IMG/VR virus record: IMGVR_UViG_3300025277_000021
Span: 1 to 60,155 of that record
Length of the DNA stretch: 60,155 nucleotides
DNA from: a virus
Taxonomy: Duplodnaviria > Caudoviricetes
Reading direction: 5' to 3' (one strand)
Shown: positions 7,192-37,206 of the stretch, piece after piece
How the letters are laid out: every line of letters starts with the position of its first letter
Numbering within the stretch: position 1 is the first letter of the stretch
Translations under genes and position numbers: made by a program
Notes under the pieces: model-generated
Told to the model about the DNA's origin: nothing
The model's input: the letters and a program-made list of their open reading frames with translations, nothing else
Databases searched by the model: none

Positions 7192-7518
7192 TTATCCTTG
7201 TTGAAGCAAGCGGGTGCGTACCAACTCTGTTGCTGCAATCAACCCTGGTTCCCACTGGCCGACAGGATAGGTAATGCTAGACCGACTGCCCACCAATTCC
7301 ACAGCAACGACCAGTACTCTGATTTTGCCCTCCTGAGCCAGCTGCAAGAACGGTTCCAACTCGCGCATCGCGTATGCTGCCAAGTCTTCTTTAGTATCTC
7401 CGCCAGCTTCCGGAATGGGCCTGAAGCTTTCGAGTGCCACGACCTTGCCATCCTTAAGGTCGGTGCGTACCGTTTGGCCGTCGGTTGGCTCGGTCGGATC
7501 ATCAGGCGAGTGGGTCAA
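7192..7518 (-). CDS. Hypothetical protein between terS and terL
   Basis: 108-aa ORF filling the gap on the operon strand. Confidence 0.55.
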   Translation of the reverse strand: MTHSPDDPTEPTDGQTVRTDLKDGKVVALESFRPIPEAGGDTKEDLAAYAMRELEPFLQLAQEGKIRVLVVAVELVGSRSSITYPVGQWEPGLIAATELVRTRLLQQG

Positions 7519-8464
7519 TGTCGCTCTCCTCGAGTGCTTTGAGTTCTTCGGGTGTCAGCCCCGGTCTCGTGTTGTATTCAGCCCCGCGCGGACCGGACTG
7601 TTGAAGATCAGGACGCTTCAGGGGCCTACGATCCTCCCCTTTACCAATTTCCTTGTTCTCCATATACCACTTCATGAACGCGGCCTGCTTCTCTTCCAAC
7701 GCCGGGTCCTGATCCATGGCTTGCTGCGCCATTTTCTGTTCCATAACCATGCGCACAGAAGACTTGCCAGTCCGCCGCTCCAAGCCCGTCTCCGGATCAA
7801 TACCGTCCTCGGGCATTTCAGCCGGATACACGGGCGTGCCTTCAATAGTCTTGCCGTCGTCGTTATCCCTGAACCGCGCAGCCCAATCCTCAGCGCTCAG
7901 ATTAGACTGGTCGCTCTGGGGAATTGCCAGAACACCGCCACTAATCTCCGCCTCAATTTTCATGTTCTCGCGGAACTTCTCGGGTCGACGCGCCTTCAGC
8001 AGGATTTCTAGGAGCCTGTCACTGTAGCGGCGAATAGTAAGTGGAATAGGACGCCCGTGGGCATCCAATTCGAGCTCACCAGTGGTTGCGTCTCGTACGA
8101 AGGCCTGAATGCCCTTGTGTACAACTGGTTCTTCGTACCCGTCAACCGCACGCCGTTGTGCTTCCTGCTCCAAGTAGTCATTGCCAATCTCCAGTGCCGC
8201 ATCCCAAGCTTCATGGAACTCGGCGACCAGAGGTTTCCCTTCGTCGTCAAGCCCACCCATATCAATGGTGTATCCGGGGTACCCATCTTCACTCCGGCGC
8301 TTCCAATAGTACATCAACCAGGGTGTGATCCGACAACGACGGGCGGTCTCTGAGACATTGGCGCAGTCCGCCAACTCAGCAACACACTGCTCAAGCATCT
8401 CTTTAGAGCGCTTCTGGTTGTGATTTGGCTTTGCTACATTACGAGCAGGTCGGTGCATTGCCAT
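7502..8464 (-). CDS. terS: Terminase small subunit
   Basis: N-terminal HTH (NVSETARRCRI...YYWK), LE.EA.RRAV.G and YSDRLLEILLKARRPEKFRE motifs; upstream of terL. Confidence 0.8.
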   Translation of the reverse strand: MAMHRPARNVAKPNHNQKRSKEMLEQCVAELADCANVSETARRCRITPWLMYYWKRRSEDGYPGYTIDMGGLDDEGKPLVAEFHEAWDAALEIGNDYLEQEAQRRAVDGYEEPVVHKGIQAFVRDATTGELELDAHGRPIPLTIRRYSDRLLEILLKARRPEKFRENMKIEAEISGGVLAIPQSDQSNLSAEDWAARFRDNDDGKTIEGTPVYPAEMPEDGIDPETGLERRTGKSSVRMVMEQKMAQQAMDQDPALEEKQAAFMKWYMENKEIGKGEDRRPLKRPDLQQSGPRGAEYNTRPGLTPEELKALEESDIDPLA

Positions 8465-8495
8465 TTTGGCTCTCCGGAGTGGGTTAACTTTGAAC

Positions 8496-8532
8496 TATAT
8501 AGCCATCTTACAGCACCATCGTATGCCAGCGT
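8496..8532 (-). promoter_or_regulatory. Putative late promoter for the packaging operon
   Basis: ACGCTGG-CATACG-N18-TATATA. Confidence 0.5.
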
Positions 8533-8812
8533 TGGCTTATAATCGCTTAGACTGGGAGGAACTTTGGGTTCAAACCTGTTTTTCTAATATTTTTGGAGGG
8601 CTAATAAGCTATCAGAGCGCCTAGGTTCTAAGCCCCATTGCATGGAAAGGCTATTTAAGACCGGGACTTTAACTTCATTTTCCCTGATACCAGCTTTTGA
8701 AACCATTCATAGCTGCGCGAAAACAGGCCAGAGGGCACTGTATGTCGTGTGAGCTGGTCACTACCCCTACTGAATGCCGATGAAAAAAGATTGGAAAAAA
8801 GAGTTTTGTGTA

Positions 8813-8841
8813 TTTACGAAGTGTGAGTTCCAGTCTATAAA
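8813..8841 (+). promoter_or_regulatory. Sigma70-like early promoter
   Basis: TTTACG-N17-TATAAA with upstream A-tracts (UP element-like). Confidence 0.65.
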
Positions 8842-8856
8842 GAATGTATCAAGAGG

Positions 8857-8897
8857 ACAAACACAAGGACACAAACAAACAAACACAAACAAACAAA
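8857..8897 (+). repeat. ACAA/ACAC low-complexity tandem repeat in the early leader
   Basis: ACAAACACAAGGACACAAACAAACAAACACAAACAAACAAA; almost free of G and T. Confidence 0.8.
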
Positions 8898-8981
8898 GAG
8901 AGTGATGAATAAGTCACACTCAATCAGACTACCCAACTCAGAGACTTCAAAGGTCTCACACTTTCAATCTGGAGAAAACCC

Positions 8982-9203
8982 ATGTCTACTTTTAAGAACT
9001 GTACCCACGTCGTAAAAACCCTTCTTCTTGAAGGTGATCTTTCCTACAAGGAGATCGCCAACAGGGCGAGGTCCCACTTCCCTGACGCCAAGACCTCAGA
9101 CAAGTCCGTCGCGAGTATCGCCCGTGATATGAGAAAGTTGGGTCTTCTTGAAAAGAGGGAACCCAAGAGAACACGTGAAGTCCAACTTGATCTTCCTCTC
9201 TAA
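8982..9203 (+). CDS. Small HTH-like DNA-binding protein (first early gene)
   Basis: LSYKEIA...FPDAKTS helix pattern; GGAGAAAACCC RBS; C-terminal QLDLPL. Confidence 0.7.
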   Translation: MSTFKNCTHVVKTLLLEGDLSYKEIANRARSHFPDAKTSDKSVASIARDMRKLGLLEKREPKRTREVQLDLPL

Positions 9204-9273
9204 GTTGGGTTCTTGGACACACTCCTTGTGAGTGTGTCTGACTAACCCAATGTCCATGAAAAGGAGAACCCCC

Positions 9274-9447
9274 ATGGAAATTATCTTCGCCCTCATTCTT
9301 GTCGTCAGTGGTGAACCCGAGTATCAGAAGGTCTACAAGACCGAGGCCGGGTGTAAACGGGCCATTACCCGGGAGGTCAATTCTGGTGAGGCCTCCTCCG
9401 GATTTTGTAACCGTGTCGAGGTACCCTTGACCCAGGCGGGTGAATGA
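9274..9447 (+). CDS. Hypothetical early protein
   Basis: AGGAG RBS before ATG 9274 (MEIIFALIL). Confidence 0.6.
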   Translation: MEIIFALILVVSGEPEYQKVYKTEAGCKRAITREVNSGEASSGFCNRVEVPLTQAGE

Positions 9448-9650
9448 CCCAGGTCTTTATCCTGACGGTCTCTGACCGGGCGGACTTTGGCCGGGTAGTC
9501 CACTACTTGGCCTGGTCTTCCCGGGAGGGGGCCCAGCAAAAAGCGGATCAGGTGGTCCAGGCTTTGCTGGCCGATGAGCCCCAGTTCGGGGACACTTTTG
9601 AAATTGAGGTCCAGGCTGAAAAGGTCCGGGCCTTTCCGGAAGCGGAGTAA
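9444..9650 (+). CDS. Hypothetical early protein
   Basis: ATGA overlap with the previous gene. Confidence 0.6.
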   Translation: MTQVFILTVSDRADFGRVVHYLAWSSREGAQQKADQVVQALLADEPQFGDTFEIEVQAEKVRAFPEAE

Positions 9651-9719
9651 CTTGGCTGGGCTGCTGGCTTTTCGACCAGCAGTCTTCCTGGGCACTCCCG
9701 CCCTAATTTGGAGAAAACC

Positions 9720-9968
9720 ATGACCACCCTCGATCAATTCAAGGCCTCGGCCCGGGTTGTTGACCTCGAAGAGGCACCCTCCTGGATCAAAGAACTGGAC
9801 TGGCCAGCCGGCTCAAAAGTGCGGATTTACCAGGACGACTTCTGGATACTCCAGCGGCCGGATGGAGGCCACCACCTTCTTCTGGAGGCCGACGAGTTTA
9901 GCACCGGGCCGGATTGCGACCTGGCCGACCTCGAAGCCCGGCTTTTTGACTACGCCCAGAACGACTAA
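9720..9968 (+). CDS. Hypothetical early protein
   Basis: GGAGAAAACC RBS before ATG 9720. Confidence 0.65.
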   Translation: MTTLDQFKASARVVDLEEAPSWIKELDWPAGSKVRIYQDDFWILQRPDGGHHLLLEADEFSTGPDCDLADLEARLFDYAQND

Positions 9969-9995
9969 CCAACCCCTTAAATTGAGGACAACCCC

Positions 9996-10418: not shown

Positions 10419-10868
10419 ATGTCCACCCTTGAAAATCTGACCATCAAACAACTGGTTGCCAAACATGATGACCTCCCAGGTATTGAACCCATCAACAAAT
10501 GGAATGGTCGTAAAGACCTCCTGGTTGAGAAGGTTGCCCAGGCAATGAAGGACGCCCGGGGTAATAAAACCATCAGGGAAGTCTCTGAGGCCCTCCTTAT
10601 TGAGGTGTCCCACATTGAAGATGACAAACCCATTGGTCACCCCTATGACTACATCCTGGACAAGGTCCTGGAGGAATTCCCTGAGGCCAACACAACTGTC
10701 AAGTGTCTACGTTGGTATAACACTAAATTGAACTCTGACCCCAATGTTAAGATGCCAGTCCGCCCACGTAAGAAAGTGGTCAAACCTGAAGTCCAGGTTG
10801 AGCCAGAACCCAAGGCCCAGGCGGAAGAACCCGAGGCCAAGACTGAATTGGCTGACCCTCTGACCTAA
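10419..10868 (+). CDS. Putative DNA-binding protein (FP[DE]ANTT..WY domain paralogue)
   Basis: Shares EFPEANTT...WY.TKL with the 31299 protein; AAAGGA RBS; ends DPLT. Confidence 0.7.
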   Translation: MSTLENLTIKQLVAKHDDLPGIEPINKWNGRKDLLVEKVAQAMKDARGNKTIREVSEALLIEVSHIEDDKPIGHPYDYILDKVLEEFPEANTTVKCLRWYNTKLNSDPNVKMPVRPRKKVVKPEVQVEPEPKAQAEEPEAKTELADPLT

Positions 10869-13877: not shown

Positions 13878-14363
13878 ATGGAACTGACAAGTGACAAAGT
13901 ACGGGCGGACCTTCAGCGCTCGATCCAGGGAAAGAAGCCGAAGCGCCGGCAGGCCCTGCGAATTACCCTGCTGACACGGCCCGGGGATGCTGATTATCCC
14001 TCGTGGGTTATCATGTGGTACATGCCGGCGGCTAAGGGAAATGGCGGCTCCGGGCACCGGATTTACGGGCGGGCCAAGCAAAATATCTTCAAGGATAAGT
14101 TCAAGGCCATAGAGCAGGTTAACGAGTACCTGCGGACCCGGCCAGCCCTGGAAGGCTGTACCCTGGAGATTGAGCATGAGATCGAGTTCTATGAGGAACT
14201 GGCCAGTGCTCGCAAGGCCCGGATAACCATGGACGAGGAACGGGAACTAGAGGCGTTCCGGGCTATCAACATGACCATCCCTGACAACCCGGAGAGCACA
14301 GACCGCAAGACCCCGACCAGCCAAGATAGAGACCCGGACGAAGAAATCGATCCGCTTGAATAG
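13878..14363 (+). CDS. Hypothetical protein (basic N-terminus, acidic DPLE tail)
   Basis: AAAGGA RBS; 161 aa. Confidence 0.7.
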   Translation: MELTSDKVRADLQRSIQGKKPKRRQALRITLLTRPGDADYPSWVIMWYMPAAKGNGGSGHRIYGRAKQNIFKDKFKAIEQVNEYLRTRPALEGCTLEIEHEIEFYEELASARKARITMDEERELEAFRAINMTIPDNPESTDRKTPTSQDRDPDEEIDPLE

Positions 14364-15516: not shown

Positions 15517-17859
15517 TCAGGCAAGAGGATCGGCATCGCGCTTAATCAAGTCTTCAACCGTCTCGTCTGACAAGTCTGTGTGTCTTCGGTGCCGATTAGG
15601 CAGTGTGACAATAGCCGCCGATGTGTCGTCAATGTCATCGGCATTATCCCAATTATCCCCAGTCACCGCATCCTCAGCCTGCTGCTGGGCCTCAATGCTC
15701 ATTTCACGGTTATAGATCACGGCACGCATCTTGGGAGCGCGCTGATCCTCCCGGGCCTTGAGCTTCTGTTGAGCAGTCTGGAGATTATCATCTTCAGCGC
15801 TCAGCTTGTTCTCGGGCAAAGCCCACAGAACTAAGCGGCCTTTATTAGTGTGGGCCTGCTTCTTGGTATTAAAGGCCGGGACAGTATTGTTGAGGAACTT
15901 ACGGGCATGGCCCCGGGTATTCCGCATCTGCATCTTTTCAGGCAGGGCGTCAACAAGGTCCTGCTCTGCCACGTACTGTCCATGGAACGGCGGCAAGCTG
16001 CTTTGATAGAGGTGCAACCATTTGGCGTCGTAGTCTGATCTGGAGGCCTCACGCATCTCAGATTTAGAACTGGTCGACGGCGCTCGTCCCTTCCCGTTGA
16101 ACTTGCCGACGTCCCGCTTTTTGAGGTAGTCCCAGATAACCGCATCGCCACCCTCTTTTTCCGCCCAATTAAATAGACGATGGTAGTACTCATCGCCCTT
16201 GGGGAATGCCTCAGAGATGGCAATCGCATAACGGCGGTCGTCGTCCTCAACAGGCAAGGCGTCGTCGTGGTTGGTAAAAGCCAGGATCACACAGTTGTTG
16301 GTGATGCGCTGAGTAGGCTGATATTTCTCATTGACCTCGATGATTGGGTCAGTAACCATTGGCTTGAGGTGGTTCATGAGGTCCACCCGGCCTTTGACCA
16401 TCAGTTCCTCAATAACGACCAGCTTGACATTCCGTGCCCAACCGTTGAACTGCGATTGGATAGATGCGTTCATGGGCCGGCCGGTATTGTGTGGGCCAAA
16501 GATACGTTCCATGACCTGGCCAATAAAGGATTTACCCGTGCCCTGCTTGCCTTTGATGACAAGTGCAAAGTTGGGCTTCTGAGCCGGGTTCTGAACACAC
16601 CAGGCGAGGTAGTCAAGCACCATATTCCGTTCGGCCGCGCCCTCAAACATGTATTCCATGTGCTCAAGGAAGATTGACGGGTCGCCTTCAATAGGCTCCA
16701 GGTCACTTGGCCTCCAGGTATTGTACACGGCATCCACAAACTCGGGCTGCTCAGGCAAGAAGTCCATACGGTCAAACTTCCGCATAGTCCGGCCGCCTGC
16801 AAAGACCTCACCAGAGATGCTGCCCTTGTTATCCAGCATATGGTTGAACATGCTGTCAAAGGACTTGGTGTCAAACATCATGCCATCGCGGCGGCGGAAA
16901 AACATTTTGGCCTGGGCAATCCATACCCACTGATCCATAATGCCCGAGTATCTTTCCTCCTGCTCACCGTTAACAGGCGGCGGGCCATATTGACCCTCGT
17001 CGTCTTCGATGTCCGGGTCGCCAAAGTCATGCTCCGGGGTATCTCCGCCTGGAGGCACGACGCTTGCATAGTTGAAGGCGTTCTTAACCAAACTGGTAAG
17101 TTCCTCCGGCGACCAAGGCGGCTGGCATCGGTCATTCCAATGCTCGGTCAAAAGCTCCAGGGTCTTGTCCTCAGACACGCCCTTCTCGCGGAGTACGCAG
17201 ATTAGGTTGAACGTGCAGGTGTTGCCGTTCTGCCCAGAGATAGCGACCTTGGCGTCATATTTGAGGTGCTCAATAGCCCAGTTAATGTACTGCGGTTGAT
17301 CCTGGTCGACGACCGCTTCCTGGGTGTGCTCACGATCAGCGCGGCGCCCGGCTAGGTGTACAAGCCAATCAGGAACCTTGGCAACCGGGATTTGGCTGCT
17401 TTCTTCCCACTCGTATTCGCCCACCTCGGTATTCGAACCAGGAGCCAAGACGTAACCGCCTGCCCCACCGGAGCCGCGGGTATCGATGCCGTCCCCGACT
17501 TGCTCAACTGTGGTGCGCGCCGAGCCCGCAAAATAAAGATGGAAGCCACCGCTTGGTGTAGTAGCCCGGAGAGTGGCAGGGAGTTCGCCATAATCAAGCT
17601 CTAGGTCGTCAAGCGTCTTCTGTCCATTTTTACCGTGCTTCATGTCCACGTCGACGACGCAGAGGCCAGATGGTCCGGTGGCAATGCCGATGTTGTCATT
17701 AGGCCGGCTTGTCCACCATGCCTCGATAGTCTTTTTGTCAGTGGTGGCTTCAGTGCCCCACTTAACCCTCGGCTTGTTTGTGGTCCCTTCTGAAATAGGG
17801 AAAACATGCCACCCTTTAGTGGCATAAGACAAAGCGAGGGAGAGTTTAGATGAACCCAT
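15517..17859 (-). CDS. DNA primase/polymerase (bifunctional Prim-Pol) fused to SF3/D5-like helicase
   Basis: GWHVFP, NIGIATG, VVDVD, TPSGGFHLYF and GGYVLAPGS Prim-Pol motifs; PriCT-like W..RCQPPW; Walker A GKQGTGKS, VVIEE, DDDRR. Confidence 0.9.
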   Translation of the reverse strand: MGSSKLSLALSYATKGWHVFPISEGTTNKPRVKWGTEATTDKKTIEAWWTSRPNDNIGIATGPSGLCVVDVDMKHGKNGQKTLDDLELDYGELPATLRATTPSGGFHLYFAGSARTTVEQVGDGIDTRGSGGAGGYVLAPGSNTEVGEYEWEESSQIPVAKVPDWLVHLAGRRADREHTQEAVVDQDQPQYINWAIEHLKYDAKVAISGQNGNTCTFNLICVLREKGVSEDKTLELLTEHWNDRCQPPWSPEELTSLVKNAFNYASVVPPGGDTPEHDFGDPDIEDDEGQYGPPPVNGEQEERYSGIMDQWVWIAQAKMFFRRRDGMMFDTKSFDSMFNHMLDNKGSISGEVFAGGRTMRKFDRMDFLPEQPEFVDAVYNTWRPSDLEPIEGDPSIFLEHMEYMFEGAAERNMVLDYLAWCVQNPAQKPNFALVIKGKQGTGKSFIGQVMERIFGPHNTGRPMNASIQSQFNGWARNVKLVVIEELMVKGRVDLMNHLKPMVTDPIIEVNEKYQPTQRITNNCVILAFTNHDDALPVEDDDRRYAIAISEAFPKGDEYYHRLFNWAEKEGGDAVIWDYLKKRDVGKFNGKGRAPSTSSKSEMREASRSDYDAKWLHLYQSSLPPFHGQYVAEQDLVDALPEKMQMRNTRGHARKFLNNTVPAFNTKKQAHTNKGRLVLWALPENKLSAEDDNLQTAQQKLKAREDQRAPKMRAVIYNREMSIEAQQQAEDAVTGDNWDNADDIDDTSAAIVTLPNRHRRHTDLSDETVEDLIKRDADPLA

Positions 17860-18027
17860 TGTGGCTCTCCTCCATGATCCGCTTGACCAGAATACGCCAT
17901 TCGACTTAAAATGGAAACCATTTTGTCATGTGGATGAAGCAACACAGGTTTACTCACATCATATTCCGCGCGTGCGCGTGAGGCGGCAACCAGCGCCGTC
18001 CGGCCTTTCCTGCGTTGTATTTGCGGG

Positions 18028-18056
18028 TTTCTATGGCAATCAGGTTTGTCTATAGT
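18028..18056 (+). promoter_or_regulatory. Putative middle promoter
   Basis: GG-TTTCTA-N17-TATAGT. Confidence 0.5.
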
Positions 18057-18101
18057 GAAATTGTTGAATGTATCACAAGGCACGAACAGAGGAGCCTAAC
18101 C

Positions 18102-18665
18102 ATGACGAAGACCATTGACGAACAGCTTGAGCGGTTCGCATCAGCCCAGGAACGATCGGCCGTAGCGCTCGAGGGTATTCTTGAAGCTCTGACAAACGGC
18201 GCAGTTGTTGGGAGCACCGCGAACAACACTTCAGTGGCCGACGTCAGCACCCCGGAGGACACCGATGCCGGAACCAGTGACGAAACTACCACCGAAGAAG
18301 TTTCCAACGAAGAAGCGGAAACACCAGAAGTCCAGGAAGAAGCGCCAACCGCTGAACCCGAGCCCGAGCCCGAGGACAGTGGAAGCCAGGACGAACCGGC
18401 GGAAGCAGAAGCAGCTGGAGAAGAAAGCGATGAAGGAGACCCTCTCGGTGATGGAGGCACTTCTTCAGACCCGTACGCCCTCCCCGAAAAGCTGACGAAC
18501 GACACGCTTCGGGGGTTTGCCCGGGACCTCATGGAGAAAGAGGGCAAGGCCGCAGTTTTCGAAGTGCTTGCCGAGAGCGGCAAGGGCTACAAAGCGGTGG
18601 GCGAAGTGTCGAAAGACGACCTGCGCGAGGCTCACGAAAACATGGCAAACCGTCTGCGCGGTTAA
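18102..18665 (+). CDS. Highly acidic, low-complexity protein with a C-terminal helical domain
   Basis: GAGGAG RBS before ATG 18102. Confidence 0.7.
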   Translation: MTKTIDEQLERFASAQERSAVALEGILEALTNGAVVGSTANNTSVADVSTPEDTDAGTSDETTTEEVSNEEAETPEVQEEAPTAEPEPEPEDSGSQDEPAEAEAAGEESDEGDPLGDGGTSSDPYALPEKLTNDTLRGFARDLMEKEGKAAVFEVLAESGKGYKAVGEVSKDDLREAHENMANRLRG

Positions 18666-18931
18666 CCAAGCCTGAACTTTCAGAGCTACGGGATAAGGCC
18701 CACAAATCCTTTGATCGTCTGTGGAAAGAAGGGCATATGTCCAGAACTTTTGCCTACAAGTGGTTATGCCATAGACTTGGCTTAACGCGACGGCAAGGGC
18801 ATATGTCCAAAATGGACACCCGAGAACAACTGGAAGAGGTTGTAGCAATCTCGGATGCCCTTCTAGGCCGCACTGTGCTGGAAGACGACTTTACGTCGGC
18901 CCCACCCATACCACCAACCGGCCGGGATTAA
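18662..18931 (+). CDS. DUF3268-like helical domain; true start unclear (possible -1 frameshift extension of the 18102 gene)
   Basis: In-frame LSELRDKAHKSFDRLWKEGH precedes ATG 18737 and completes the LR..AH..FD.LW...MSR..AY.WL...LG motif. Confidence 0.55.
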   Translation, partial: LTKPELSELRDKAHKSFDRLWKEGHMSRTFAYKWLCHRLGLTRRQGHMSKMDTREQLEEVVAISDALLGRTVLEDDFTSAPPIPPTGRD

Positions 18932-21604: not shown

Positions 21605-21856
21605 ATGGACGGGCTGTTTAAGATCAAACCAGTTCCGCTGTCGGATACCGTTTACTCGGAGACCCTGAGCAATCTTGATGAGGCTGAGCGCTTGAAGGAC
21701 GGCAAGTGGATTTGCGAGCTTCATGTTGAGGCCTTTATTCTGTTGAAAGAACAGGGCCTTGTAGACGACAACAATTGCGTGAGCGTGGGGCGTTATAAGT
21801 CTCTGCTCTGGCATTGCCACCTGGACGCACAAATTCCCGAAGGAGACCCAAAGTAA
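21605..21856 (+). CDS. Hypothetical protein
   Basis: AAAGGA RBS. Confidence 0.6.
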   Translation: MDGLFKIKPVPLSDTVYSETLSNLDEAERLKDGKWICELHVEAFILLKEQGLVDDNNCVSVGRYKSLLWHCHLDAQIPEGDPK

Positions 21857-22239: not shown

Positions 22240-23619
22240 ATGGCTTTCCACGCTAAGCTATCAGCCTCAGGGTCAAAGCAATGGATGAACTGCCCTGGTT
22301 CCGTTGCTGCTGAAGCTATGAACCCAAACCCCCGGGGCTCATCTATTTTTGCTCAGGAAGGCACCGCGGCGCACCTCCTGTGTGAGCTTTATGCCAATGA
22401 TGGTATCCACCCGGAAGACTTTCTGGGGGATACCATTCTCATTTGGAATGACGACGCGGTGCTTGAGAAAGACCTTAACAGGCTTCGCGAGGACGTACGC
22501 AGTGGCAAGGTCACTTCAAGACGTCCAATGGACCCGGACGCTGAAGTAGAGGCAGAGTTCCTTGTCGACCAGGACATGGTTGATGCCGTCGAGTACTTTG
22601 TGGCGGCAGTGGAGGCTTCGCGCGCACGCCTGGACCCGCGAGGCCGTGAAGAGCGGTCTGAGCAGTGGCTAGGCAAGCTCGAGGAGCTTCATCCCCTGCT
22701 TGGCGGCACGGCTGACTATATCGGGATTGAAGCCTTTGGCTGGGCTGAATTGATTGACTATAAGCATGGGCGGGGCGTTCTCGTTGAAGTGCGTGACAAC
22801 TCCCAGCTTAAGACATACGGGCTAGGCACTTTACTGGAGTTTCCAGATTGTGAGGGCGTTCGCATGACAATCGTCCAGCCTCGCAAGGAGCATGAAGACG
22901 GGCCCATTCGTTCTATCGAGTATACCCGGCAAGAGCTTTTGGACTTTGGCGAAGAACTGAAGGCCGCAGCCGAGGCCACTCAGCACGTCAATGCTGAACG
23001 GGCTGCAGGCGACTGGTGTACCTTCTGTGACGCAAAGGCATTCACTGATGAGAACGGGGTATTCCAAGAGTGTCCCGCACTTGTCACTGCCATGCAGGAA
23101 AGTGCCCAGTTTGACTTTGCTGACGAGCCACCTGAGGTGGGATTAGGCATTCCGACCAAGATGAACGAGCTTGCTGAGCGGGCTAAGTGGCTTGGTACTT
23201 TCGACAAGTATGTGAAAGCCATTGAGGGAGCTATTCAGCGCGAACTTCTTGCTGGTCGTCCTGTCGAGGGTAAGAAGCTCGTGCGGAAGAAGGCCAACCG
23301 GACATTTGGCGTTTACGTCGAAGAGCTGGACGAGCTAACTGAGACCGAGGACAACTACTGGGAGAGCCTGTCTGCCGGTGACGTCGAGGCAATCATGGAA
23401 AGTGAGCTTGGGCTTACCCGCGATCAGTGCTATCAGCCTGGAAAACTGAAGTCCCCGGCGCAGTTTGAAAAGATGGGCAAAGACGTAAAAAGGCTTATTG
23501 GTGAGATGGCCTACAAGCCGGAGGGAGGTCTGACAGTCGCTGACGAAGATGACCCGAGACCGGCCGTCGAAGTGGCTGTAGGTGGCTCTGCGGACTTCCC
23601 TGACGACTTGGAGGACTAA
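22240..23619 (+). CDS. Cas4-like PD-(D/E)xK exonuclease (DUF2800 family)
   Basis: HAKLSAS...W..CPGS, EGTAAH, GTAD, IDYKHG, QLKTY and C-terminal WCTFC..C cluster. Confidence 0.85.
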   Translation: MAFHAKLSASGSKQWMNCPGSVAAEAMNPNPRGSSIFAQEGTAAHLLCELYANDGIHPEDFLGDTILIWNDDAVLEKDLNRLREDVRSGKVTSRRPMDPDAEVEAEFLVDQDMVDAVEYFVAAVEASRARLDPRGREERSEQWLGKLEELHPLLGGTADYIGIEAFGWAELIDYKHGRGVLVEVRDNSQLKTYGLGTLLEFPDCEGVRMTIVQPRKEHEDGPIRSIEYTRQELLDFGEELKAAAEATQHVNAERAAGDWCTFCDAKAFTDENGVFQECPALVTAMQESAQFDFADEPPEVGLGIPTKMNELAERAKWLGTFDKYVKAIEGAIQRELLAGRPVEGKKLVRKKANRTFGVYVEELDELTETEDNYWESLSAGDVEAIMESELGLTRDQCYQPGKLKSPAQFEKMGKDVKRLIGEMAYKPEGGLTVADEDDPRPAVEVAVGGSADFPDDLED

Positions 23620-23621
23620 CA

Positions 23622-24670: not shown

Positions 24671-25252
24671 ATGGCCGAACGTTTGAAAGCGGTTACCCCG
24701 CCTTTCCGAGTGAGTTTCCCTTCGATTTTCGAAGCATCGTCCTATCAAGGCGGTGACCCGAAGTATTCGGTGGCAATGCTCTTCTATCCCGACAAATTCA
24801 GCGAAGCCGACAAGCGTGCTTGGCAGGCCATGCAAGCGATTGCAGACGCCGCGTCCAAGGACAAGTTCAAAAAGCTGATTAAGGACTTGCCGGGCAACTT
24901 CAAGCGGCCACTCCGCGATGGTGCTGAAAAAGCTCATCTCGACGGCTATGGCGAAGGGATGATGTTCGGCACTGCCTCGTCCAAGCAGCGCCCTGGCCTT
25001 GTTGACCGGAACAAGCAACCGATCCTCACTGAGGAAGAGTTCTATCCCGGCTGCTGGGCTCGTGCAACTGTCACGGCGTATCCCTACGACAACGTGGGCA
25101 AAGGTGTGGCCTTCGGCTTGCACAACCTGCAGAAGCTCGGCGACGATGAGAACTTCACTGGCCGCATGGCTGCTGAGGACGACTTCGACGATGATGCTGA
25201 CACAGTTTGGCAGGGCGCGGACATCGCCCCTGAGGATGATCCTACGGCGTAA
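24671..25252 (+). CDS. Single-stranded DNA-binding protein (DUF2815 / T7 gp2.5-like)
   Basis: RVSFP..F, PLRDG, FYPGCWAR, GVAFGLHNLQKL; acidic tail. Confidence 0.88.
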   Translation: MAERLKAVTPPFRVSFPSIFEASSYQGGDPKYSVAMLFYPDKFSEADKRAWQAMQAIADAASKDKFKKLIKDLPGNFKRPLRDGAEKAHLDGYGEGMMFGTASSKQRPGLVDRNKQPILTEEEFYPGCWARATVTAYPYDNVGKGVAFGLHNLQKLGDDENFTGRMAAEDDFDDDADTVWQGADIAPEDDPTA

Positions 25253-26086: not shown

Positions 26087-26828
26087 TTGCAAAGACTGTG
26101 GGGGTACTGGCGAAGTCGTAACGGCTAAGCTGTACCCCTCCGGGCACACCGAAGTTCATGAAGAATGCGACACTTGCAACGGCGCTGGAGAGGTCTATCA
26201 AGAACCTCAAATGGGCTGCAACGTTGGTGGTCAAATTCCATGTCCTGACTGTGTAGAACCCTTCAAGCCAGGTAAGGCGTCAGGCGCACAAAACTTGGCG
26301 TATATCCTGGATGGTGAAGACGTCTTTGGGGCCAAAACGTGGGACTACCTCAAAGACCTGTCAAGCAAAACGGCGCCAGGCTTCGATGTTCATGACCTCA
26401 ACTTCCCCAACTATAGTGAGGTTGGCTTGGCTTTGAACAAGACCGACAATTCCGTCCCAACGGTATCGACAATGCTTCCATTGACTTCGTCAGTTGTGGG
26501 CAACTCCTACCGGGACGGGAACCAGCAGTCGGCTTTGCGGAATAAGAACCCGGGGAACCGAGTTCTGATTGTTCCAGAGCCTGCTAACCCGCATGATCCC
26601 TGTGCCCTGGCAGTTGTCGTGGCACGTGGATTTGGTGGAAAGTCGGGCTTTGTCTGGGTTCACGTCGGTTACGTACCGCGGGATCAAGCAAAGAAACTTG
26701 CGGCTGTCTGGCCCAAGTATCGTGGACGTCCTCTGGTCGGCGAAGGTCGATTGACTGGACATCCAGGCCGTGACAAAAACCCTGCGATTGTTGTCGAAGG
26801 GTCATTCAGGAATTATTTCCCTGATTAA
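26025..26828 (+). CDS. DnaJ-type Zn finger plus HIRAN domain (probable -1 frameshift extension of the 25399 gene)
   Basis: Frame open from 26010; CKDCGGTG and CDTCNGAG lie upstream of ATG 26211; HIRAN motif VVGNSYR...EPANPHDPCALAV...VGYVPR. Confidence 0.7.
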   Translation, partial: SEAVTPAGRSAHTSLSRPGVTCKDCGGTGEVVTAKLYPSGHTEVHEECDTCNGAGEVYQEPQMGCNVGGQIPCPDCVEPFKPGKASGAQNLAYILDGEDVFGAKTWDYLKDLSSKTAPGFDVHDLNFPNYSEVGLALNKTDNSVPTVSTMLPLTSSVVGNSYRDGNQQSALRNKNPGNRVLIVPEPANPHDPCALAVVVARGFGGKSGFVWVHVGYVPRDQAKKLAAVWPKYRGRPLVGEGRLTGHPGRDKNPAIVVEGSFRNYFPD

Positions 26829-27192: not shown

Positions 27193-29466
27193 ATGACAGT
27201 TGACGTCATATTAGATTTCGAGACTAGGTCCGCGTGTGACCTAATGAAAGCCGGAGCCTATGCCTACTCGACGCATCCCACTACCAAAGTCATGTGCGCC
27301 TGTTGGCATTTCGCCGGCGATCCAATTGAAAAGGTTTATGCTTGGCAAGCAGGTTTCCCGCACCTCGGCATCGACCAGTCAGAGTATCCTCAAGAGCTGG
27401 CCGATCGTATTGCGGCTGGGGAAATCCTGGAAGCCCACAATGCTTTCTTTGAATTTTGTATTTGGAATAACGTTTGGCGCAAGGTCTATCCTCAGCTTCC
27501 AGAGCTTAAGCTAGCTCAAATCAGATGCTCTGCAGCCAAAGCGGCAGCGTTTGCCTTGCCACGTGCTCTTGATAAAGCCATTTCTGCTCTCGGTCTTCCT
27601 CAGAAGAAAGACCTGGAGGGCTCGGCTATCATGAAGAAGCTGGCTAAGCCTCGCAACCCAACCGCTGCAGAGAAGCGCGAGCTTAAAGCTGAGGGCAAGC
27701 GTCCAGAAGACGTTATCCTATGGCTTGAAGACAAGGACATGATCCTGCGCAATACTGTCTATTGCCAGCAAGACGTTCGGGCAGAGCACGGGCTGTCCTC
27801 AGTCCTGCGTGATTTGCCTCCCCGTGAGTTTGAGTTTTGGCAGATGGACTTGCGCATGAACCTGCGCGGGATTACCTGTGACATTGAGCTAGTACATATT
27901 GCCATTGAGCTGGCTGAGGTTGAGGCTAACCGTCTGAACGCTGAACTGCAGGAACTCACTGATGGGTTTGTGCAGAAGACTACTGGTCGAATTAAGTTCA
28001 AGCAATGGATGGAAGACAACGGGTCTAAAATTCCAAACACCCAAGGTGCGACCCTGGATATTATCCTCGGGCATGACCATGACGACAAAGAGGCGACGGC
28101 AGAGCTTAAGGCAGAGCTTCAAGGCATTGTCCTCAATGACGTTACCCGACGCGCCTGTGAGATTGTACGTGACGGCAATCGGTCGTCCTTGGCTAAGTAC
28201 AAGCAGATGCTTATTCAATTGTCAGACGGCAATCGCTTGCGGGACATGATGCTCTATTGCGGGGCGTCCAGGACCGGTCGGTGGTCAGGGAAAGGCACAC
28301 AGCCCCATAACTTTATTCGTGGGTATTCTGAAATTATGGAGGAAGTCTGCCAGGACATCCTCAAAGCTGATCCAGAGGCTTTGAAACTGCTCTATGGCGG
28401 GTCAGTCCTGGAAATTCTCTCTAAGGCTACTCGGGGCGCTTTAATTGCCTCTAAAGGCAAAAAGCTGATGGTAGCTGACTTTGCTGCCATTGAAGCGCGT
28501 GTTCTCCTCTGGCTGGCCAAAGCCACTGAAGCACTGCAAGTCTTCTATCGTGGTGAGGATATTTACCTGGATATGGCCACGTCCATCTTCGCGTACCCGT
28601 GCACCAATAAAGACGACTTTCCTTTTGAGCGTAAAGTTGGCAAGGCTGCGATCCTTGGCCTGGGCTATCAGATGGGCTGGGAGAAGTTCGAAGACGAGTG
28701 TCGCAACAAGAACGGGATCACCGACCAGGAACCTAAATTCTTCAAGGACGTTGTGCGGGTCTATCGCAAAGAGCGCTTCCCTGAAGTCTCGTCCTTCTGG
28801 TATGACCTTGAAGAGGCTGCAATCCTAGCGGTCAAGAAGTATGACCACACTAAAGGCGCCAGGGGCCCCCGGGTCGAATGCCGCAAGCTCACCTGGTTTA
28901 TGTGGGGCCAGTTCCTACATATGGAATTGCCTTCAGGGCGTTTGCTGTCCTACTTCCGGCCGTCAGTCAAAGTCCGCACGTCCATGCTGTTTCCGGCAAT
29001 CAATGAGCGGGGCTATGAGTGCTCAGTGACGGTAAACGGGCCTAAAGATATGACTGTTGCCCAGGGTCGGCGCAAAGCGGCACGTTTGGCTAAGGTAGCC
29101 AATAAGCAATTGGTGCCGAAAGCCGAACCGACGACATTTACCAATGAAACTCTGACCTTCATGCACGAGAACTCTAAGACCCGCCAGTGGGAACGGAAAG
29201 AGACCTACGGCGGAGAGCTTGTTGAGAACGCAACCCAAGCAACTGCTCGGGACTTGATGGCAGAGGCAATGCTCCGCGTCGACCAGCATCCTGATTATGA
29301 CCTGCTCCTATCAGTTCACGACGAAGAAATCGCAGAGATAGAAGACGAGAAAATCCACGAGGGCTCCGTTAAGGAGTTTGAAGCGCTGATGGAAGAACTG
29401 CCCGCTTGGGCTGAAGGCTGTCCAGTAGACGCTGAAGGCTGGATGGGCCACAGGTATAGGAAATAG
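27193..29466 (+). CDS. polA: DNA polymerase family A with 3'-5' exonuclease domain
   Basis: LDFET exo I, AHNAFFE, RTGRWSG, motif A DFAAIEAR, motif B RKVGKAAILGLGY, motif C SVHDE. Confidence 0.93.
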   Translation: MTVDVILDFETRSACDLMKAGAYAYSTHPTTKVMCACWHFAGDPIEKVYAWQAGFPHLGIDQSEYPQELADRIAAGEILEAHNAFFEFCIWNNVWRKVYPQLPELKLAQIRCSAAKAAAFALPRALDKAISALGLPQKKDLEGSAIMKKLAKPRNPTAAEKRELKAEGKRPEDVILWLEDKDMILRNTVYCQQDVRAEHGLSSVLRDLPPREFEFWQMDLRMNLRGITCDIELVHIAIELAEVEANRLNAELQELTDGFVQKTTGRIKFKQWMEDNGSKIPNTQGATLDIILGHDHDDKEATAELKAELQGIVLNDVTRRACEIVRDGNRSSLAKYKQMLIQLSDGNRLRDMMLYCGASRTGRWSGKGTQPHNFIRGYSEIMEEVCQDILKADPEALKLLYGGSVLEILSKATRGALIASKGKKLMVADFAAIEARVLLWLAKATEALQVFYRGEDIYLDMATSIFAYPCTNKDDFPFERKVGKAAILGLGYQMGWEKFEDECRNKNGITDQEPKFFKDVVRVYRKERFPEVSSFWYDLEEAAILAVKKYDHTKGARGPRVECRKLTWFMWGQFLHMELPSGRLLSYFRPSVKVRTSMLFPAINERGYECSVTVNGPKDMTVAQGRRKAARLAKVANKQLVPKAEPTTFTNETLTFMHENSKTRQWERKETYGGELVENATQATARDLMAEAMLRVDQHPDYDLLLSVHDEEIAEIEDEKIHEGSVKEFEALMEELPAWAEGCPVDAEGWMGHRYRK

Positions 29467-31246: not shown

Positions 31247-31298
31247 CAATCTTGTTCGCTGAGAATGAAAAACCAGGCCACATATGAGGAGCCACACA

Positions 31299-31814
31299 AT
31301 GAAATCGATTATCGCACTTTCCGCAAGCATCCTGCCGCTTATTGCCTTCGCTGCTGCCGACGCCAACTCCGGTGCCGCCGGCGGGACTTCGGGCGCCGCT
31401 GGTGCCAAGCCCACGGCTGACCCCAAAGCAACCGATGCAAAGGCCCAAGCCAATGCCAAAGCCAAGGCTGATGCCAAAGCTGAAGGCAAAGAGAAAGAGC
31501 CCAAGCAGCCCAAGCGCGGTGTTGGTACCGTAGCGATGGAAGCCATTCTGGACGGTGCATCGAACGAAGAAGCCCTGGCCGCTGTTCGCAAGGAATTCCC
31601 CGACGCGAACACCACAAAGGCGTCGATCAACTGGTACCGCAACAAGCTGCGCAAAGACGGCACTGTGTCGACCGGCGGCGCCTGGAAGGGCAAGCCCGTT
31701 CCGAACGCTCGTGAAATGGCCAAAGCAGCTAAAGAAGCCCAGGAAGGCAAAGACGCCGAAAACGCAAAAGCGGGCGACAACAAGCCGACCGCCGGCGACG
31801 ACCCCATGGCATGA
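31299..31814 (+). CDS. Putative DNA-binding protein (Ala/Lys-rich linker plus FPDANTT..WY domain)
   Basis: GAGGAG RBS; AKA repeats; paralogous domain to the 10419 and 8982 proteins; ends DDPMA. Confidence 0.7.
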   Translation: MKSIIALSASILPLIAFAAADANSGAAGGTSGAAGAKPTADPKATDAKAQANAKAKADAKAEGKEKEPKQPKRGVGTVAMEAILDGASNEEALAAVRKEFPDANTTKASINWYRNKLRKDGTVSTGGAWKGKPVPNAREMAKAAKEAQEGKDAENAKAGDNKPTAGDDPMA

Positions 31815-31963: not shown

Positions 31964-33037
31964 ATGACCACAACAATGACCGCTGCCCCTATTGAAATGA
32001 ACGGGGTCTTCTTCCAAAAAGTGTTTTATCAGCCGATGACAAAAGGCATGGGTGGCGACAGCAAAGGCCTTTACGAAATCAAAGACCCACCAAACACCGG
32101 CTGGTCCCGGGCTCTGGTTATTTGGCCTGAAGACAACCAACCTGAGACCACGTCCAAGCGCAAGAAGCAAGCGGCCAAGCGTGTCACAGTCTTCTGCCCC
32201 TACACGCTGAGCGCCTATCAGGTTCGGTTCACGGCTCGCGAGGTTGCCAACCAGAAGGCTTACCCGCTTACGCCTAAGCTCATTGATAGCCTGGCAGCTA
32301 TCATCGACAAGAACTGGAAAATGTATACCAATTTTGGGTTCCATAAAGCCTATGATGTTGCAGCCCTGGTGCTCACGCGTTTAGGCAAACCAGTTCCAAG
32401 CTACATGTCACCTAAGCTTGAAAACCTGGAATACAATGAGACCAGTGTGCCTAACCGGCATGGCAAGCCAGTTGCAGACACCCTGCTTCGACCAGTAAAA
32501 TCCTCGAGTAAGCGCGGGCAAGTTTGTGCCTTCTTTATGGCTGATGGAACAGGCTCTTTGCGTGAGGCCATGGCCAAGTTTGATATGTCTCGGTCAGGTG
32601 TTCTGACGCACTTGCATGGACTTCACAAAGACCACGGCCTTGGCTATGTATTGCAGGGCGATATGGCAACTCTGATGTTGCCTGCAGGTTGCACTGACCC
32701 AATGATCGACGGCGCCCAGGCTGAAGTCCATCAGAAGACCGTGGCTCAAACAACTGCCCGGAAAGCAGGCAAGCCTTGCAAGCCCACTGTCACTGCTCTA
32801 CCAAAGAAAGGCAAGCGACGGGAAGTTGCCTTGTCTTTGGTCGAAGAGGGCTCTATTGCTGAAGTCGCCGAAAAGGCTGGATGCACACCGAACTCAGTGA
32901 GGTCTCACCTCCACGACCTGCATACGAAGCACGGCTTCGGTTATGAGTTGTCCTCAGACAAGTCTCGTGGTAAACTGATCGCACCGGAGGGATGGACACC
33001 AGACTATGATCCCGAAGAACTTGACCCGCTAGCCTAA
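31964..33037 (+). CDS. Protein with two tandem winged-HTH-like repeats (candidate transcription regulator)
   Basis: KR..V......GS..E......S.S.V..HLH.LH..HG.GY repeated twice; ends DPLA. Confidence 0.7.
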   Translation: MTTTMTAAPIEMNGVFFQKVFYQPMTKGMGGDSKGLYEIKDPPNTGWSRALVIWPEDNQPETTSKRKKQAAKRVTVFCPYTLSAYQVRFTAREVANQKAYPLTPKLIDSLAAIIDKNWKMYTNFGFHKAYDVAALVLTRLGKPVPSYMSPKLENLEYNETSVPNRHGKPVADTLLRPVKSSSKRGQVCAFFMADGTGSLREAMAKFDMSRSGVLTHLHGLHKDHGLGYVLQGDMATLMLPAGCTDPMIDGAQAEVHQKTVAQTTARKAGKPCKPTVTALPKKGKRREVALSLVEEGSIAEVAEKAGCTPNSVRSHLHDLHTKHGFGYELSSDKSRGKLIAPEGWTPDYDPEELDPLA

Positions 33038-35309: not shown

Positions 35310-35401
35310 ACTGGCGTCTCGCATTCCTTCTGGCCCTCGTAGCTTTCACTTCTGGCTTCGGGGGCCAGTTTCTTTATGACCTCCTTACTAAGGGAAATTG
35401 A
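35306..35401 (+). CDS. 31-aa membrane peptide (not in the ORF track)
   Basis: ATGA overlap; MNWRLAFLLALVAFTSGFGGQFLYDLLTKGN. Confidence 0.45.
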   Translation: MNWRLAFLLALVAFTSGFGGQFLYDLLTKGN

Positions 35402-35402
35402 C

Positions 35403-35870
35403 ATGAACGACCCCTCATCTCAAATGGACAAGTGGGACACTAGGTTCCTGCGCCTTGCTGTCGAAGCACGGTCCTGGACTAAAGGCTTAGGCGCTGGTGT
35501 CGACCGTGGAGTTGGCGCTTGCGTTGTCTCTCCGAACCGTCACCAGTTCTCGCTTGGTTATGCTGGCTTTCCTCAGGGCGTTGACGACAACCCTGAACGT
35601 CTCGCCAGCCCCGACTATCGCGCCTATCATACTGTCCATGCGGAATTGAATGCAATTCTCAATGCCCGCTGTTCAGTTGAAGGCTGGACAATCTATGTGA
35701 CAGAAGCCCCGTGTCATGAGTGTTCCAACGCAATCATCCAGGCTGGCATTAAGCGTGCAGTGACTGGAACACCTCGCCGGGACTCAAGCTGGTACCGATC
35801 GCAGCTTGAAGGCCGTGAAACAATGCGTGAAGCTGGTCTCATCATTGATACCCTGGAGATGCCAGTATGA
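35403..35870 (+). CDS. dCMP deaminase
   Basis: WD.RFL.LA, VGACVV, HAELNAI, PCHEC...IIQAGIKR. Confidence 0.9.
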   Translation: MNDPSSQMDKWDTRFLRLAVEARSWTKGLGAGVDRGVGACVVSPNRHQFSLGYAGFPQGVDDNPERLASPDYRAYHTVHAELNAILNARCSVEGWTIYVTEAPCHECSNAIIQAGIKRAVTGTPRRDSSWYRSQLEGRETMREAGLIIDTLEMPV

Positions 35871-36430
35871 AACTCATTATGGCCATAAGTGGTAATGGCT
35901 TTGTTGCCACTGGTGAAGACGATGATATGTCCTGGACTGGACCGGTCGATAAAGCGGTATTCAAACTGCTGACAAGCACTAGCGACGTTCTCGCCGTATC
36001 GGCTAAGACCTTGCAATATATGCCAAAAGAACTCCCCGGGCGCGGCAAGCTCTATGGTTTGTCGACAAACCCGAGCAAGGGTGTTCAGCTTGAAGACTTT
36101 GCAGCCATGTTCCCCAATGCCTGGTTGCTTGGTGGACAAGAGCTTGGGCTATTTGCAATGAAGAACGGGTTTGTGGATACCGTTTACCTTTGCCGGGCGG
36201 TTGACACTATGTTGGTCGCAGCCGGGCCCGCGCTATTCGCCACTGACCCAAGCGAAGACCCACCTCAGGACGTGGAAGACACGCGCATCCCCGATAAGAT
36301 CAGCCGCTATCTGGAACGGAGGCAGCACTCTCCCGGCCGGGGCTCCTGGTGGGAACAAACTATGCGGGTGAAGATTGAGAACCTGCTAGTCGAAACATGG
36401 AAACGCGGGAGTTCAGTTGATGGCGAGTAA
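35867..36430 (+). CDS. Dihydrofolate reductase-like protein (divergent)
   Basis: IMAISGNG, MSW..P.D...FK..T, KT...MP..LPGR, LLGG, DTVYL. Confidence 0.7.
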   Translation: MKLIMAISGNGFVATGEDDDMSWTGPVDKAVFKLLTSTSDVLAVSAKTLQYMPKELPGRGKLYGLSTNPSKGVQLEDFAAMFPNAWLLGGQELGLFAMKNGFVDTVYLCRAVDTMLVAAGPALFATDPSEDPPQDVEDTRIPDKISRYLERRQHSPGRGSWWEQTMRVKIENLLVETWKRGSSVDGE

Positions 36431-36887
36431 AACCGCAGAGAAAAACCTGTGGAACCGGATGCGGGAGGCTATGAGGGTCTTCCGCGCCGACGTTCACTAT
36501 ACCCGCATTGAAAACTCGGTTTCAGATAGCTACCCTGATGTCGAAGTATCCCTGCTCTATGAAGGGGTTAATTACGGCGCAACCTTTGAGTTGAAGACAG
36601 CAAGTCGACCAGTGCACTTTGAAACTTCCGTTCCTGTGCATGTTCGTCCTGGACAGGTGCGCTGGCTTAAGAAGCGCTGGAATGTCAGAGGTTCGGCATG
36701 GCTTTTGGTTCAAGTAGGTTCAGGCAAGGACTTGGCGCGCTACCTGCTTCCCGGTGACCTTGCCGGACCAGCCGAGGAAGGCCAAAGCGAAAGCTGGTTT
36801 GCAAAGCACTCAGTCTGTAAGCATGATGACCCACTTGACGAAATTGTTAAACTGGGGTGCACCTGGAGGTGGCTAGATGAGAATTGA
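36420..36887 (+). CDS. VRR-NUC / Holliday-junction-resolvase-like PD-(D/E)xK nuclease
   Basis: E..LW, RIEN....YPDV, FELK, RPGQVRW. Confidence 0.75.
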   Translation: MASKTAEKNLWNRMREAMRVFRADVHYTRIENSVSDSYPDVEVSLLYEGVNYGATFELKTASRPVHFETSVPVHVRPGQVRWLKKRWNVRGSAWLLVQVGSGKDLARYLLPGDLAGPAEEGQSESWFAKHSVCKHDDPLDEIVKLGCTWRWLDEN

Positions 36888-37206
36888 TACCGCAATTGCT
36901 GGTGCCACGTTCCGTGAGGGCGGCACGGAGATTGTTACGGGGTTAAAGGTTGGGCAGCGCTACCGGTTGGAGCGCGAGCCCTCTAACCCGTACGACCCAA
37001 ACGCGGTCAAAGTACTGGTTGAGAATTACCAATTCGGCCGGGCCCAACCAAAGACATACCATTTGGGCTACATTCCGCGCAAGTGGTCAGGAACGGTATC
37101 TGCAGCCCTTAAAAACAACAATCTTCATGTTTGGGCTGTTAAGAAAGACGATTACTGGGGAACAATTTCCGTTCTGTGGGTTGACGCGTCAAATGATCCG
37201 CTATAA
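36877..37206 (+). CDS. HIRAN domain protein
   Basis: IAGATFR...LEREPSNPYDPNAVKV...LGYIPR; ends NDPL. Confidence 0.85.
   Translation: MRIDTAIAGATFREGGTEIVTGLKVGQRYRLEREPSNPYDPNAVKVLVENYQFGRAQPKTYHLGYIPRKWSGTVSAALKNNNLHVWAVKKDDYWGTISVLWVDASNDPL

Follow-up and report, generated by a model that had tools for sequence, protein, structure and literature searches.

The stretch of DNA analysed here, referred to as the window, comprises the 60,155 bases of virus record IMGVR_UViG_3300025277_000021, with an estimated completeness of 99%. Roseobacter phage RDJL3 (OK283305.1), for which the database record gives Roseobacter denitrificans OCh 114 as host, shares 75–78% nucleotide identity with the window. 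For 69 open reading frames (ORFs) of the window a blastp orthologue was found in RDJL3, with the gene order kept, and the window is an RDJL3-like marine roseophage. Eight of its proteins share a short C-terminal tail ending in D-P-[LMT]-x, or in D-P-L in the case of a protein with a HIRAN domain. These carriers sit in the early/replication arm (about 10–37 kb), with the small terminase subunit (TerS) located apart at 7.5–8.5 kb. The eight C-termini had been listed in an earlier reading of the same DNA (the original prediction), and translation with verified coordinates returned them unchanged:

7502..8464, minus strand: TerS (small terminase subunit, 320 amino acids), end SDIDPLA, with DPLA at 7505-7516
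10419..10868, plus strand: 10419 protein (149 amino acids, function not assigned), end ELADPLT, with DPLT at 10854-10865
13878..14363, plus strand: 13878 protein (161 amino acids, function not assigned), end EEIDPLE, with DPLE at 14349-14360
15517..17859, minus strand: primase-helicase (Prim-Pol plus D5/VapE-like, 780 amino acids), end RDADPLA, with DPLA at 15520-15531
24671..25252, plus strand: protein that binds single-stranded DNA (SSB; T7 gp2.5/Enc34-type, 193 amino acids), end PEDDPTA, with DPTA at 25238-25249
31284..31814, plus strand: 31284 protein (176 amino acids; alternative start 31299), end AGDDPMA, with DPMA at 31800-31811
31964..33037, plus strand: helix-turn-helix (HTH) protein (357 amino acids, phrog_11422), end EELDPLA, with DPLA at 33023-33034
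36877..37206, plus strand: HIRAN protein (stand-alone domain, 109 amino acids), end ASNDPL, with DPL at 37195-37203

TerS was identified by phrog_4044 (terminase small subunit, E 5.6e-28) and the primase-helicase by PF09250 (E 2.7e-42), PF19263 (E 4e-22) and phrog_1156 (DNA primase). The RDJL3 record labels the gene of the latter (window 15517-17859, minus strand; RDJL3 7017-9353) as 'integrase', a label that is contradicted by Pfam and PHROGs (Prim-Pol, PriCT, DUF5906/VapE) and was rejected. The SSB matched PF10991 (E 8.1e-44) and phrog_112 ('Gp2.5-like ssDNA binding protein', E 1.1e-48). For the HTH protein, a match to phrog_11422 (E 8.6e-72) was accompanied by weak sigma-70 region 4 and HTH matches at residues 285–325; an Atlas search gave no usable match. 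The HIRAN protein matched PF08797 (E 6.2e-15). A second HIRAN protein at 26211-26828 (PF08797, E 2.7e-11) ends in RNYFPD and is untagged; only the stand-alone protein of 109 amino acids bears the tail. No Pfam or PHROG match was obtained for the 13878 protein.

The carriers had been called mostly unrelated. This holds for most of them, the remaining pairs showing no similarity in blastp, but not for the 10419 and 31284 proteins, which have a common core domain (blastp 2e-6). These two are paralogues in this small domain, sharing PHROGs 38698, 17205 and 34102, and the alignment agrees. As a consequence of this shared core, the tails are found on seven unrelated folds and not on eight.

Enrichment of the tail was assessed in a set of 88 ORFs (18,722 amino acids), consisting of the 69 ORFs with an RDJL3 blastp orthologue and 19 further, non-overlapping ORFs of at least 50 amino acids. 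The set is our own heuristic and was compiled without a gene caller; C-termini and stops are independent of the choice of start. DP[LMT] occurs 21 times in this set, and 8 of these occurrences are at the extreme C-terminus, compared to 0.197 expected (Poisson 4.8e-11). D at position −4 followed by P at −3 was observed 7 times, compared to 0.40 expected (2.3e-7). Since the motif was defined after being seen, a look-elsewhere test was performed, in which each tail was shuffled and the highest count reached by whichever dipeptide, at whichever fixed offset in the final 8 residues, was recorded. The observed count of 7 in the 88-ORF set was matched in 5, 1 and 3 of 5000 shuffles (last 12, 20 and 40 residues, respectively), and the observed 6 in the 69-protein set in 11, 9 and 13 of 5000. 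The shuffles keep each tail's own composition. None of the window's 586 other ORFs of at least 30 amino acids bears the tail motif. In G002, a phage of 48 kb whose polymerase is related, none of 440 ORFs ends in DP plus one or two residues, and the DPLA-stop pattern is absent from its DNA.

The C-terminal 20-mers are slightly enriched in D (8.0%) and P (5.5%) compared to the whole proteome, which would favour explaining the pattern by composition or chance, given C-termini that are acidic and contain proline. Given shuffles of unchanged composition that attained the observed count in just 1–5 of 5000 cases, the 0/586 other ORFs, and orthologues that keep the tail while its flanks and codons drift (see below), this explanation is effectively refuted and we regard it as next to impossible. 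The enrichment of the tail is far beyond chance.

Conservation was examined in RDJL3 and three near-complete relatives (G003, G004 and G005). All carrier orthologues in these four genomes have kept D-P (RDJL3 7/7, G004 7/7, G005 8/8, G003 7/7), and the tail is still present at 28–36% protein identity. Flanking residues vary, as seen for TerS (SDIDPLA, LGFDPLA, DELDPLA) and the primase-helicase (DADPLA, NADPLA and GYDPLA, for instance RDADPLA versus EGYDPLA). Orthologues of the HIRAN protein end in ADPL, KDPLA, ADPF, FDPL or LDPL (for instance SNDPL, SKDPLA, TADPF and SLDPL), those of the 10419 protein in ADPLA (RDJL3, G004), ADPLL (G005) or ADPTA (G003). The sole homologue of the 13878 protein was found in G005 (41% identity, end NGDPLE); tblastn detected none in RDJL3, G003 or G004. 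The codons of the tail vary between the copies of the window (GAC or GAT; CCA, CCT, CCG or CCC) and change synonymously between orthologues while D-P stays fixed, in support of the earlier claim that selection acts on the peptide and not on the DNA. A signal at the DNA level is ruled out by these differences among copies and among orthologues. The window yielded no Rfam match at gathering thresholds and no tRNA.

Among 41 TerS homologues, 34 end in D-P-L-[AR]; these are all 34 with at least 61% identity, the 7 distant and shorter matches being without the tail. HTH homologues with at least 57% identity end in [LI]DPLA in 24 of 26 cases, and the remaining two stop earlier and look truncated. 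At 33–42% identity, the tail was found in a single HTH homologue out of 24 (P0042). Because most of these distant homologues stop at PKGWTP without a tail, the tail of the HTH protein is regarded as an appended extension. P0042 is located on a 34-kb phage fragment (G001) with a G + C content of 65.5%, which is syntenic from the SNF2 helicase onward and carries DPLA on two proteins, the homologues of the HTH protein (36% identity) and of the HIRAN protein (28% identity, EEGDPLA).

In the AlphaFold2 (AF2) model of the SSB, the oligonucleotide/oligosaccharide-binding (OB) core has a predicted local distance difference test (pLDDT) score above 90, residues 161–193 score 54–68 and the position of the tail is of low confidence. 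The net charge of the last 15 residues is −4. Its family was sampled as the best 120 of 200 matches, with identities of 52–100%. Among these 120, 75 end in DP plus one or two residues, mostly DPLA, DPMA, DPTA or DPLG; the other ends include DDPLLG, DDFL[NSD], DDLL[AG], SDLE and DF, and 7 of the 120 end in PF, as bacterial SSBs do. Since the family also ends in DFLx, DLLx and PF, DPxA is one of several interchangeable SSB tips. At 50 loci from bacterial assemblies, mostly prophage-like and from Clostridia and Negativicutes, the SSB end is almost uniformly DDDFL[SGAND]. D-P-[LMT]-x is thus one of the tip variants borne by the acidic tails that characterise T7-type SSBs.

Tip sharing outside the RDJL3-like clade was analysed in 80 IMG/VR loci around SSB homologues, from which the eight loci of the discovery clade were left out. 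The last four residues of the other ORFs were compared, by a simple BLOSUM score, to the SSB tip of their own locus or to foreign SSB tips. For 51 loci, the score with the own SSB was 568, compared to 457 ± 24 after permutation (0/20000 permutations). With one locus per 70%-identity SSB cluster (38 loci), the values were 413 and 331 ± 20.5 (1/20000). The ORFs of these loci are greedy longest-ORF sets that include spurious ORFs, which adds noise and should not create own-locus matches. Examples of shared tips are:

L041 and L076: primase-helicase EFDPLA, SSB DPLA
L047: 186-amino-acid protein DDDPLA, SSB DDDPLA, 31284-family protein VDPTA
L042: TerS DGLLE, SSB DALLD
L053: TerS ESYLD, SSB EDFLD, GapR-like protein DDFLD
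L052 and L131: Prim-Pol/VapE primases TSDLE and ESDFLG, SSBs ASDLE and DEDFLA
L113: SNF2-type helicase DGFFD, SSB DDFLS

Sorted by protein, a tail matching the SSB tip of the same locus was found as follows:

Primase-helicase: 2/31 loci
DUF2800 nuclease: 5/88 loci
SNF2: 1/49 loci
TerS: 1/4 loci
31284 family: 5/11 loci
PolA: 0/83 loci

The tips themselves differ widely among related phages (DPLA, DFLD, DLLA, SLFG, DIFK, SDLE), and the tip goes with the phage and not with the protein family. The phage-wide scale that had been proposed for the tail system stands for the RDJL3-like clade with its eight carriers; elsewhere, one to three proteins share a tip.

The co-variation of tips between the SSB and other proteins within single phages supports, indirectly, the common receptor suggested in the original prediction. 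We consider it reasonably probable that the shared tail is a docking motif for a common receptor, which would itself probably be encoded by the phage. The D-P-[LMT]-[A/G/x] ending would then be the tip of a T7-style acidic C-terminal tail that has its home on the gp2.5/Enc34-type SSB. In the RDJL3-like clade, the SSB tip would have been appended to seven further proteins, usually behind an acidic or flexible linker, namely the primase-helicase, TerS, the HTH protein, the HIRAN protein and three small proteins. A free C-terminus with Asp-Pro and one hydrophobic residue could fit a single receptor site, and the tailed proteins may be brought to, or compete for, one place in the DNA-replication/processing machinery of the phage. 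Both the binding and the identity of the receptor are points that we infer.

A receptor of the host has to be weighed against docking on a phage protein. The tails would in that case recruit or hijack a conserved bacterial factor, such as a replication, repair or chaperone protein. The recurrence of an unchanged DFLx tip in prophage loci of Clostridia, Negativicutes, Klebsiella and Prosthecobacter points in this direction, as do the 7 PF ends among the best 120 of 200 SSB homologues, which indicate that the SSB family can adopt host-type tails. Known host hub motifs, however, are stable across bacteria, while the tips vary widely among related phages, and DP[LMT]A fits neither the bacterial SSB C-terminal motif nor the clamp-binding motif. 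Recruitment by a host factor is thus considered unlikely.

Docking on a phage receptor has a precedent in T7. Acidic SSB tails are textbook replisome organisers, and in T7 two proteins share one; the T7 tails are acidic runs with Phe as the last residue. An acidic tail common to the SSB and the primase-helicase is therefore already known from that phage. The analogy to T7 gp2.5 and gp4 drawn in the original prediction holds closely, in that the SSB of the window is itself of the gp2.5/Enc34 type (PF10991), with an acidic tail of low pLDDT, and the motif is an alternative tip of the acidic tail of that family. The same tip is found on the SSB (EDDPTA) and the primase-helicase (DADPLA), and both are kept in RDJL3, G003, G004 and G005. 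Unlike T7 tails, those of the window end in A, T, E or L, with F occurring only in some distant SSB homologues. The carriers number eight, including TerS, the HTH protein and the HIRAN protein, compared to two in T7, and the primase-helicase combines Prim-Pol and D5/VapE domains, whereas T7 gp4 is DnaG/DnaB-like. For T7, gp2.5 has been described as anchoring its tail on the front basic patch of gp5, and in PDB 6P7E a gp4-tail peptide occupies the same gp5 site, so that both tails address one polymerase site; a DTDF peptide is mentioned for the T7 tail (PMC12339929). According to a second source, the tail of T7-type SSBs mediates contacts to the polymerase and the primase-helicase (PMC5686142).

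Further likenesses exist to bacterial SSBs and to clamp-binding motifs. The bacterial SSB tip has the consensus D-D-D-I-P-F and acts as an interaction hub. The tails of the window resemble it: they are acidic and disordered, and their free C-terminus presents both Pro and a hydrophobic residue. They differ in that D-I-P-F is not found (DDPTA in the window SSB), Pro and the hydrophobic residue stand in reverse order and a small residue closes the tail. The topology is also inverted, with one tail and many partners in bacteria and many proteins with one tail here. The beta-clamp-binding consensus is Q-L-[SD]-L-F. Like this motif and the PCNA-interacting protein (PIP) box, the tail is short, often C-terminal, and placed on unrelated DNA-handling proteins that would address one hub; however, all eight tails lack Gln and a hydrophobic pair in the spacing that the motif requires. 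Neither the window proteins scanned nor the annotation of RDJL3 revealed a sliding-clamp gene.

The literature searched (main texts without supplements) contained the T7 and Enc34 work and no DP[LMT]x or DFLx tail on several proteins of a phage. Compared to this literature, three points appear to be new: a tip of the form D-P-[LMT]-x, its occurrence on as many as eight proteins (among them TerS, the HTH protein and the HIRAN protein) and, across a large group of phages, tips that are uniform within a phage and diverse between phages. The shared-tail principle of T7 appears scaled here to eight proteins on seven unrelated folds and reaches packaging and gene regulation, with a tip that varies among phage lineages and is uniform inside one phage.

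A receptor encoded by the phage is most likely; the two leading candidates are the family-A polymerase and, on the SSB, the beta-sheet groove. The former is located as follows:

27193..29466, plus strand: family-A DNA polymerase (PolA), candidate receptor; RDJL3 annotation and weak Pol I structure matches

PolA is the only universal protein of the module that never bears an SSB-like tail, as listed above, and a structure search with it matched Pol I structures alone, and weakly. A complex prediction of PolA (11-row alignment) with SSB residues 150–193, run without controls, had a score of 0.25 and a mark of 0.32 and carries no weight on either side of the question of binding. The second candidate is made concrete by crystals of Enc34 ORF6, other DUF2815 proteins and gp2.5, in which, as described, the C-termini lie in the beta-sheet groove of a neighbouring molecule (PMC5686142). 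The concave beta-sheet of a neighbouring SSB could accordingly be considered as a receptor, with the difference that the contacts described there are crystal contacts and concern SSB tails only. An SSB groove as receptor would directly explain why clients copy the SSB's own tip. Roughly estimated, PolA and the SSB groove are equally possible, each being doubtful when taken singly; another phage protein and a host factor are both unlikely, and the lack of any common receptor is a little less likely again.

In the last case, each tail would fold back on the DNA-binding surface of its own protein as an autoinhibitory DNA mimic, and the tip would be a generic solution or a product of tail exchange. 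Every carrier with a recognised domain handles DNA, and tail removal affects DNA binding in related systems: the DNA selectivity of Enc34 ORF6 changes and the DNA affinity of gp2.5 or gp32 rises (PMC5686142). An invariant D-P would not be expected from seven unrelated folds, though, and the tip follows the phage and not the protein family. Recent gene conversion, which could have exchanged the tails, is contradicted by the different codons of the copies. In the HIRAN protein, the tail extends only about 5 residues past the last strand, which is too short to reach back. We therefore view autoinhibition in the absence of a common receptor as quite unlikely.

The ends of the tails also bear on the protease tag that had been named as an alternative, i.e. 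a C-terminal degron for the timed removal of the carriers by a protease of the host or the phage. With their free C-terminal position and a last residue that is small or non-polar (A, G, L), they bear a loose resemblance to degradation tags. The ends are PLA, PTA, PMA, PLT, PLE and PL, however, and do not match the L-A-A end of ssrA-like tags. The SSB, the primase-helicase and TerS, which carry the tail, are required in quantity for the whole of infection, and the many tip variants are at odds with a conserved protease. A Pfam scan of 30 window proteins revealed no gene for a protease or an adaptor. The tag gained no positive evidence and fits poorly with the tip variants and with carriers that are abundant and needed; a degron is considered very unlikely.

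The small 31284 protein consists of a signal-peptide-like N-terminus, a three-helix domain (residues 80–125), a Lys/Ala/Glu linker and the tip. In its AF2 model, the core has a pLDDT of about 93 and the tail of 53–57. Alignment and AF2 indicate the same architecture for the family: the three-helix core is joined to the tip by a linker that varies greatly in length. The domain, which defines a viral family, had 1728 matches at E ≤0.001 in a representative library; among the best 150 of these 1728, a DP tip closes 32 and a hydrophobic-Leu tip 10. No Pfam match was found for the domain shared with the 10419 protein, and its Atlas matches are solely viral 'hypothetical protein' clusters. Foldseek gave no PDB match at E ≤0.001 for the 31284 domain, only weak winged-helix rows. 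The N-terminus (31299-31370), MKSIIALSASILPLIAFAAADANS, resembles a Sec signal peptide or a membrane anchor. This signal-like part is kept in close relatives and absent from short members of the family (L053, L073).

Several points weigh against docking on a common phage receptor. We infer the docking from sequence and from the analogy with T7, and the receptor is a candidate only. The tails are without the terminal aromatic residue that defines T7 tails, and for TerS and the HTH regulator a polymerase or an SSB is not an obvious partner. The tail of the 31284 protein, if this protein is exported, could not meet a cytoplasmic hub; its N-terminus may instead be a membrane anchor for replication. 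Outside the clade, tip sharing is sporadic, and the co-variation was derived from ORF sets that we compiled heuristically, using a simple BLOSUM score. Finally, prophages of Clostridia, Negativicutes and Klebsiella share one and the same DFLx tip. A conserved host receptor could account for this uniformity across distant host phyla, and so could a phage receptor that is co-inherited.

Extending the docking on a common receptor, we tentatively propose a private, fast-evolving 'tail code' in phages with a module of DUF2800, gp2.5-like SSB and PolA. The tip of the SSB, comprising the final three or four residues of its acidic tail, would serve as an address that is copied onto replication clients. 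In RDJL3-like phages, eight clients with roles in priming, fork processing (HIRAN), regulation or initiation (HTH) and packaging (TerS) would meet at one SSB/polymerase site, and the tip variants might insulate a phage from its host and from co-infecting phages.

If the binding holds true, the tip would provide a four-residue handle for mapping the interaction network of a phage from sequence alone. The 10419, 13878 and 31284 proteins, together with the viral family of the latter, could then be annotated as clients of the replication machinery, and the tails would constitute a natural system for the co-evolution of motif and receptor. Growth of RDJL3 on Roseobacter denitrificans OCh 114 makes this phage a tractable test bed.

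Both internal copies of the motif reported earlier, DEGDPLG and NDDPLA, are present:

18438..18449, plus strand: internal DPLG in the acidic linker of the 18015-18665 protein, kept in 5/5 genomes compared
59358..59369, minus strand: internal DPLA in the 59043-59792 protein of the structural module, with DPLAEGP kept in 4/5 genomes

In G003, the internal DPLG copy is duplicated in tandem, GDPLGDDPLGDG.

A borderline ninth carrier is a protein of 83 amino acids (21605-21856) that ends in PEGDPK, with DPK at 21845-21853. It ends in EGDPK in RDJL3 and in EGDPE in L003, i.e. with a conserved D-P-x and without a hydrophobic residue. The ORF at 42770-43096 (minus strand) ends in TEDPAE and is doubtful as a gene.

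Phage GapR-like proteins (PF10073) were found in L053 (11731-12114, E 2.9e-27) and L051 (7056-7397, E 2.6e-23). The one of L051 ends in VDPLA beside an SSB ending in EDPFD.

An RDJL3-like phage fragment of 21.7 kb (L109, contig CAYOHT010000007.1) is contained in a metagenome-assembled genome (MAG) of 'uncultured Cocleimonas sp.'. Its SSB is 93% identical, its primase-helicase ends in RDVDPLA and its DUF2800 protein in SDFPDDLE. The placement in the Cocleimonas MAG probably reflects either faulty binning or a different host.

A different C-terminal motif, [DE]-F-[PD]-D-D-L, occurs within the last 10 residues of 14 of the 2927 ORFs of the fetched loci, with 20 internal occurrences in 607,722 residues. 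In the RDJL3-like clade it is located on the DUF2800/PD-(D/E)XK nuclease (22240-23619), which has SADFPDDLED at 23596-23616 in the window. Loci with this motif are L072, L077, L045, L053 and L073, and in L072 and L077 it was observed on the primase-helicase and on a small homologue of the 18737-18931 protein of the window. It may represent a second docking tail.

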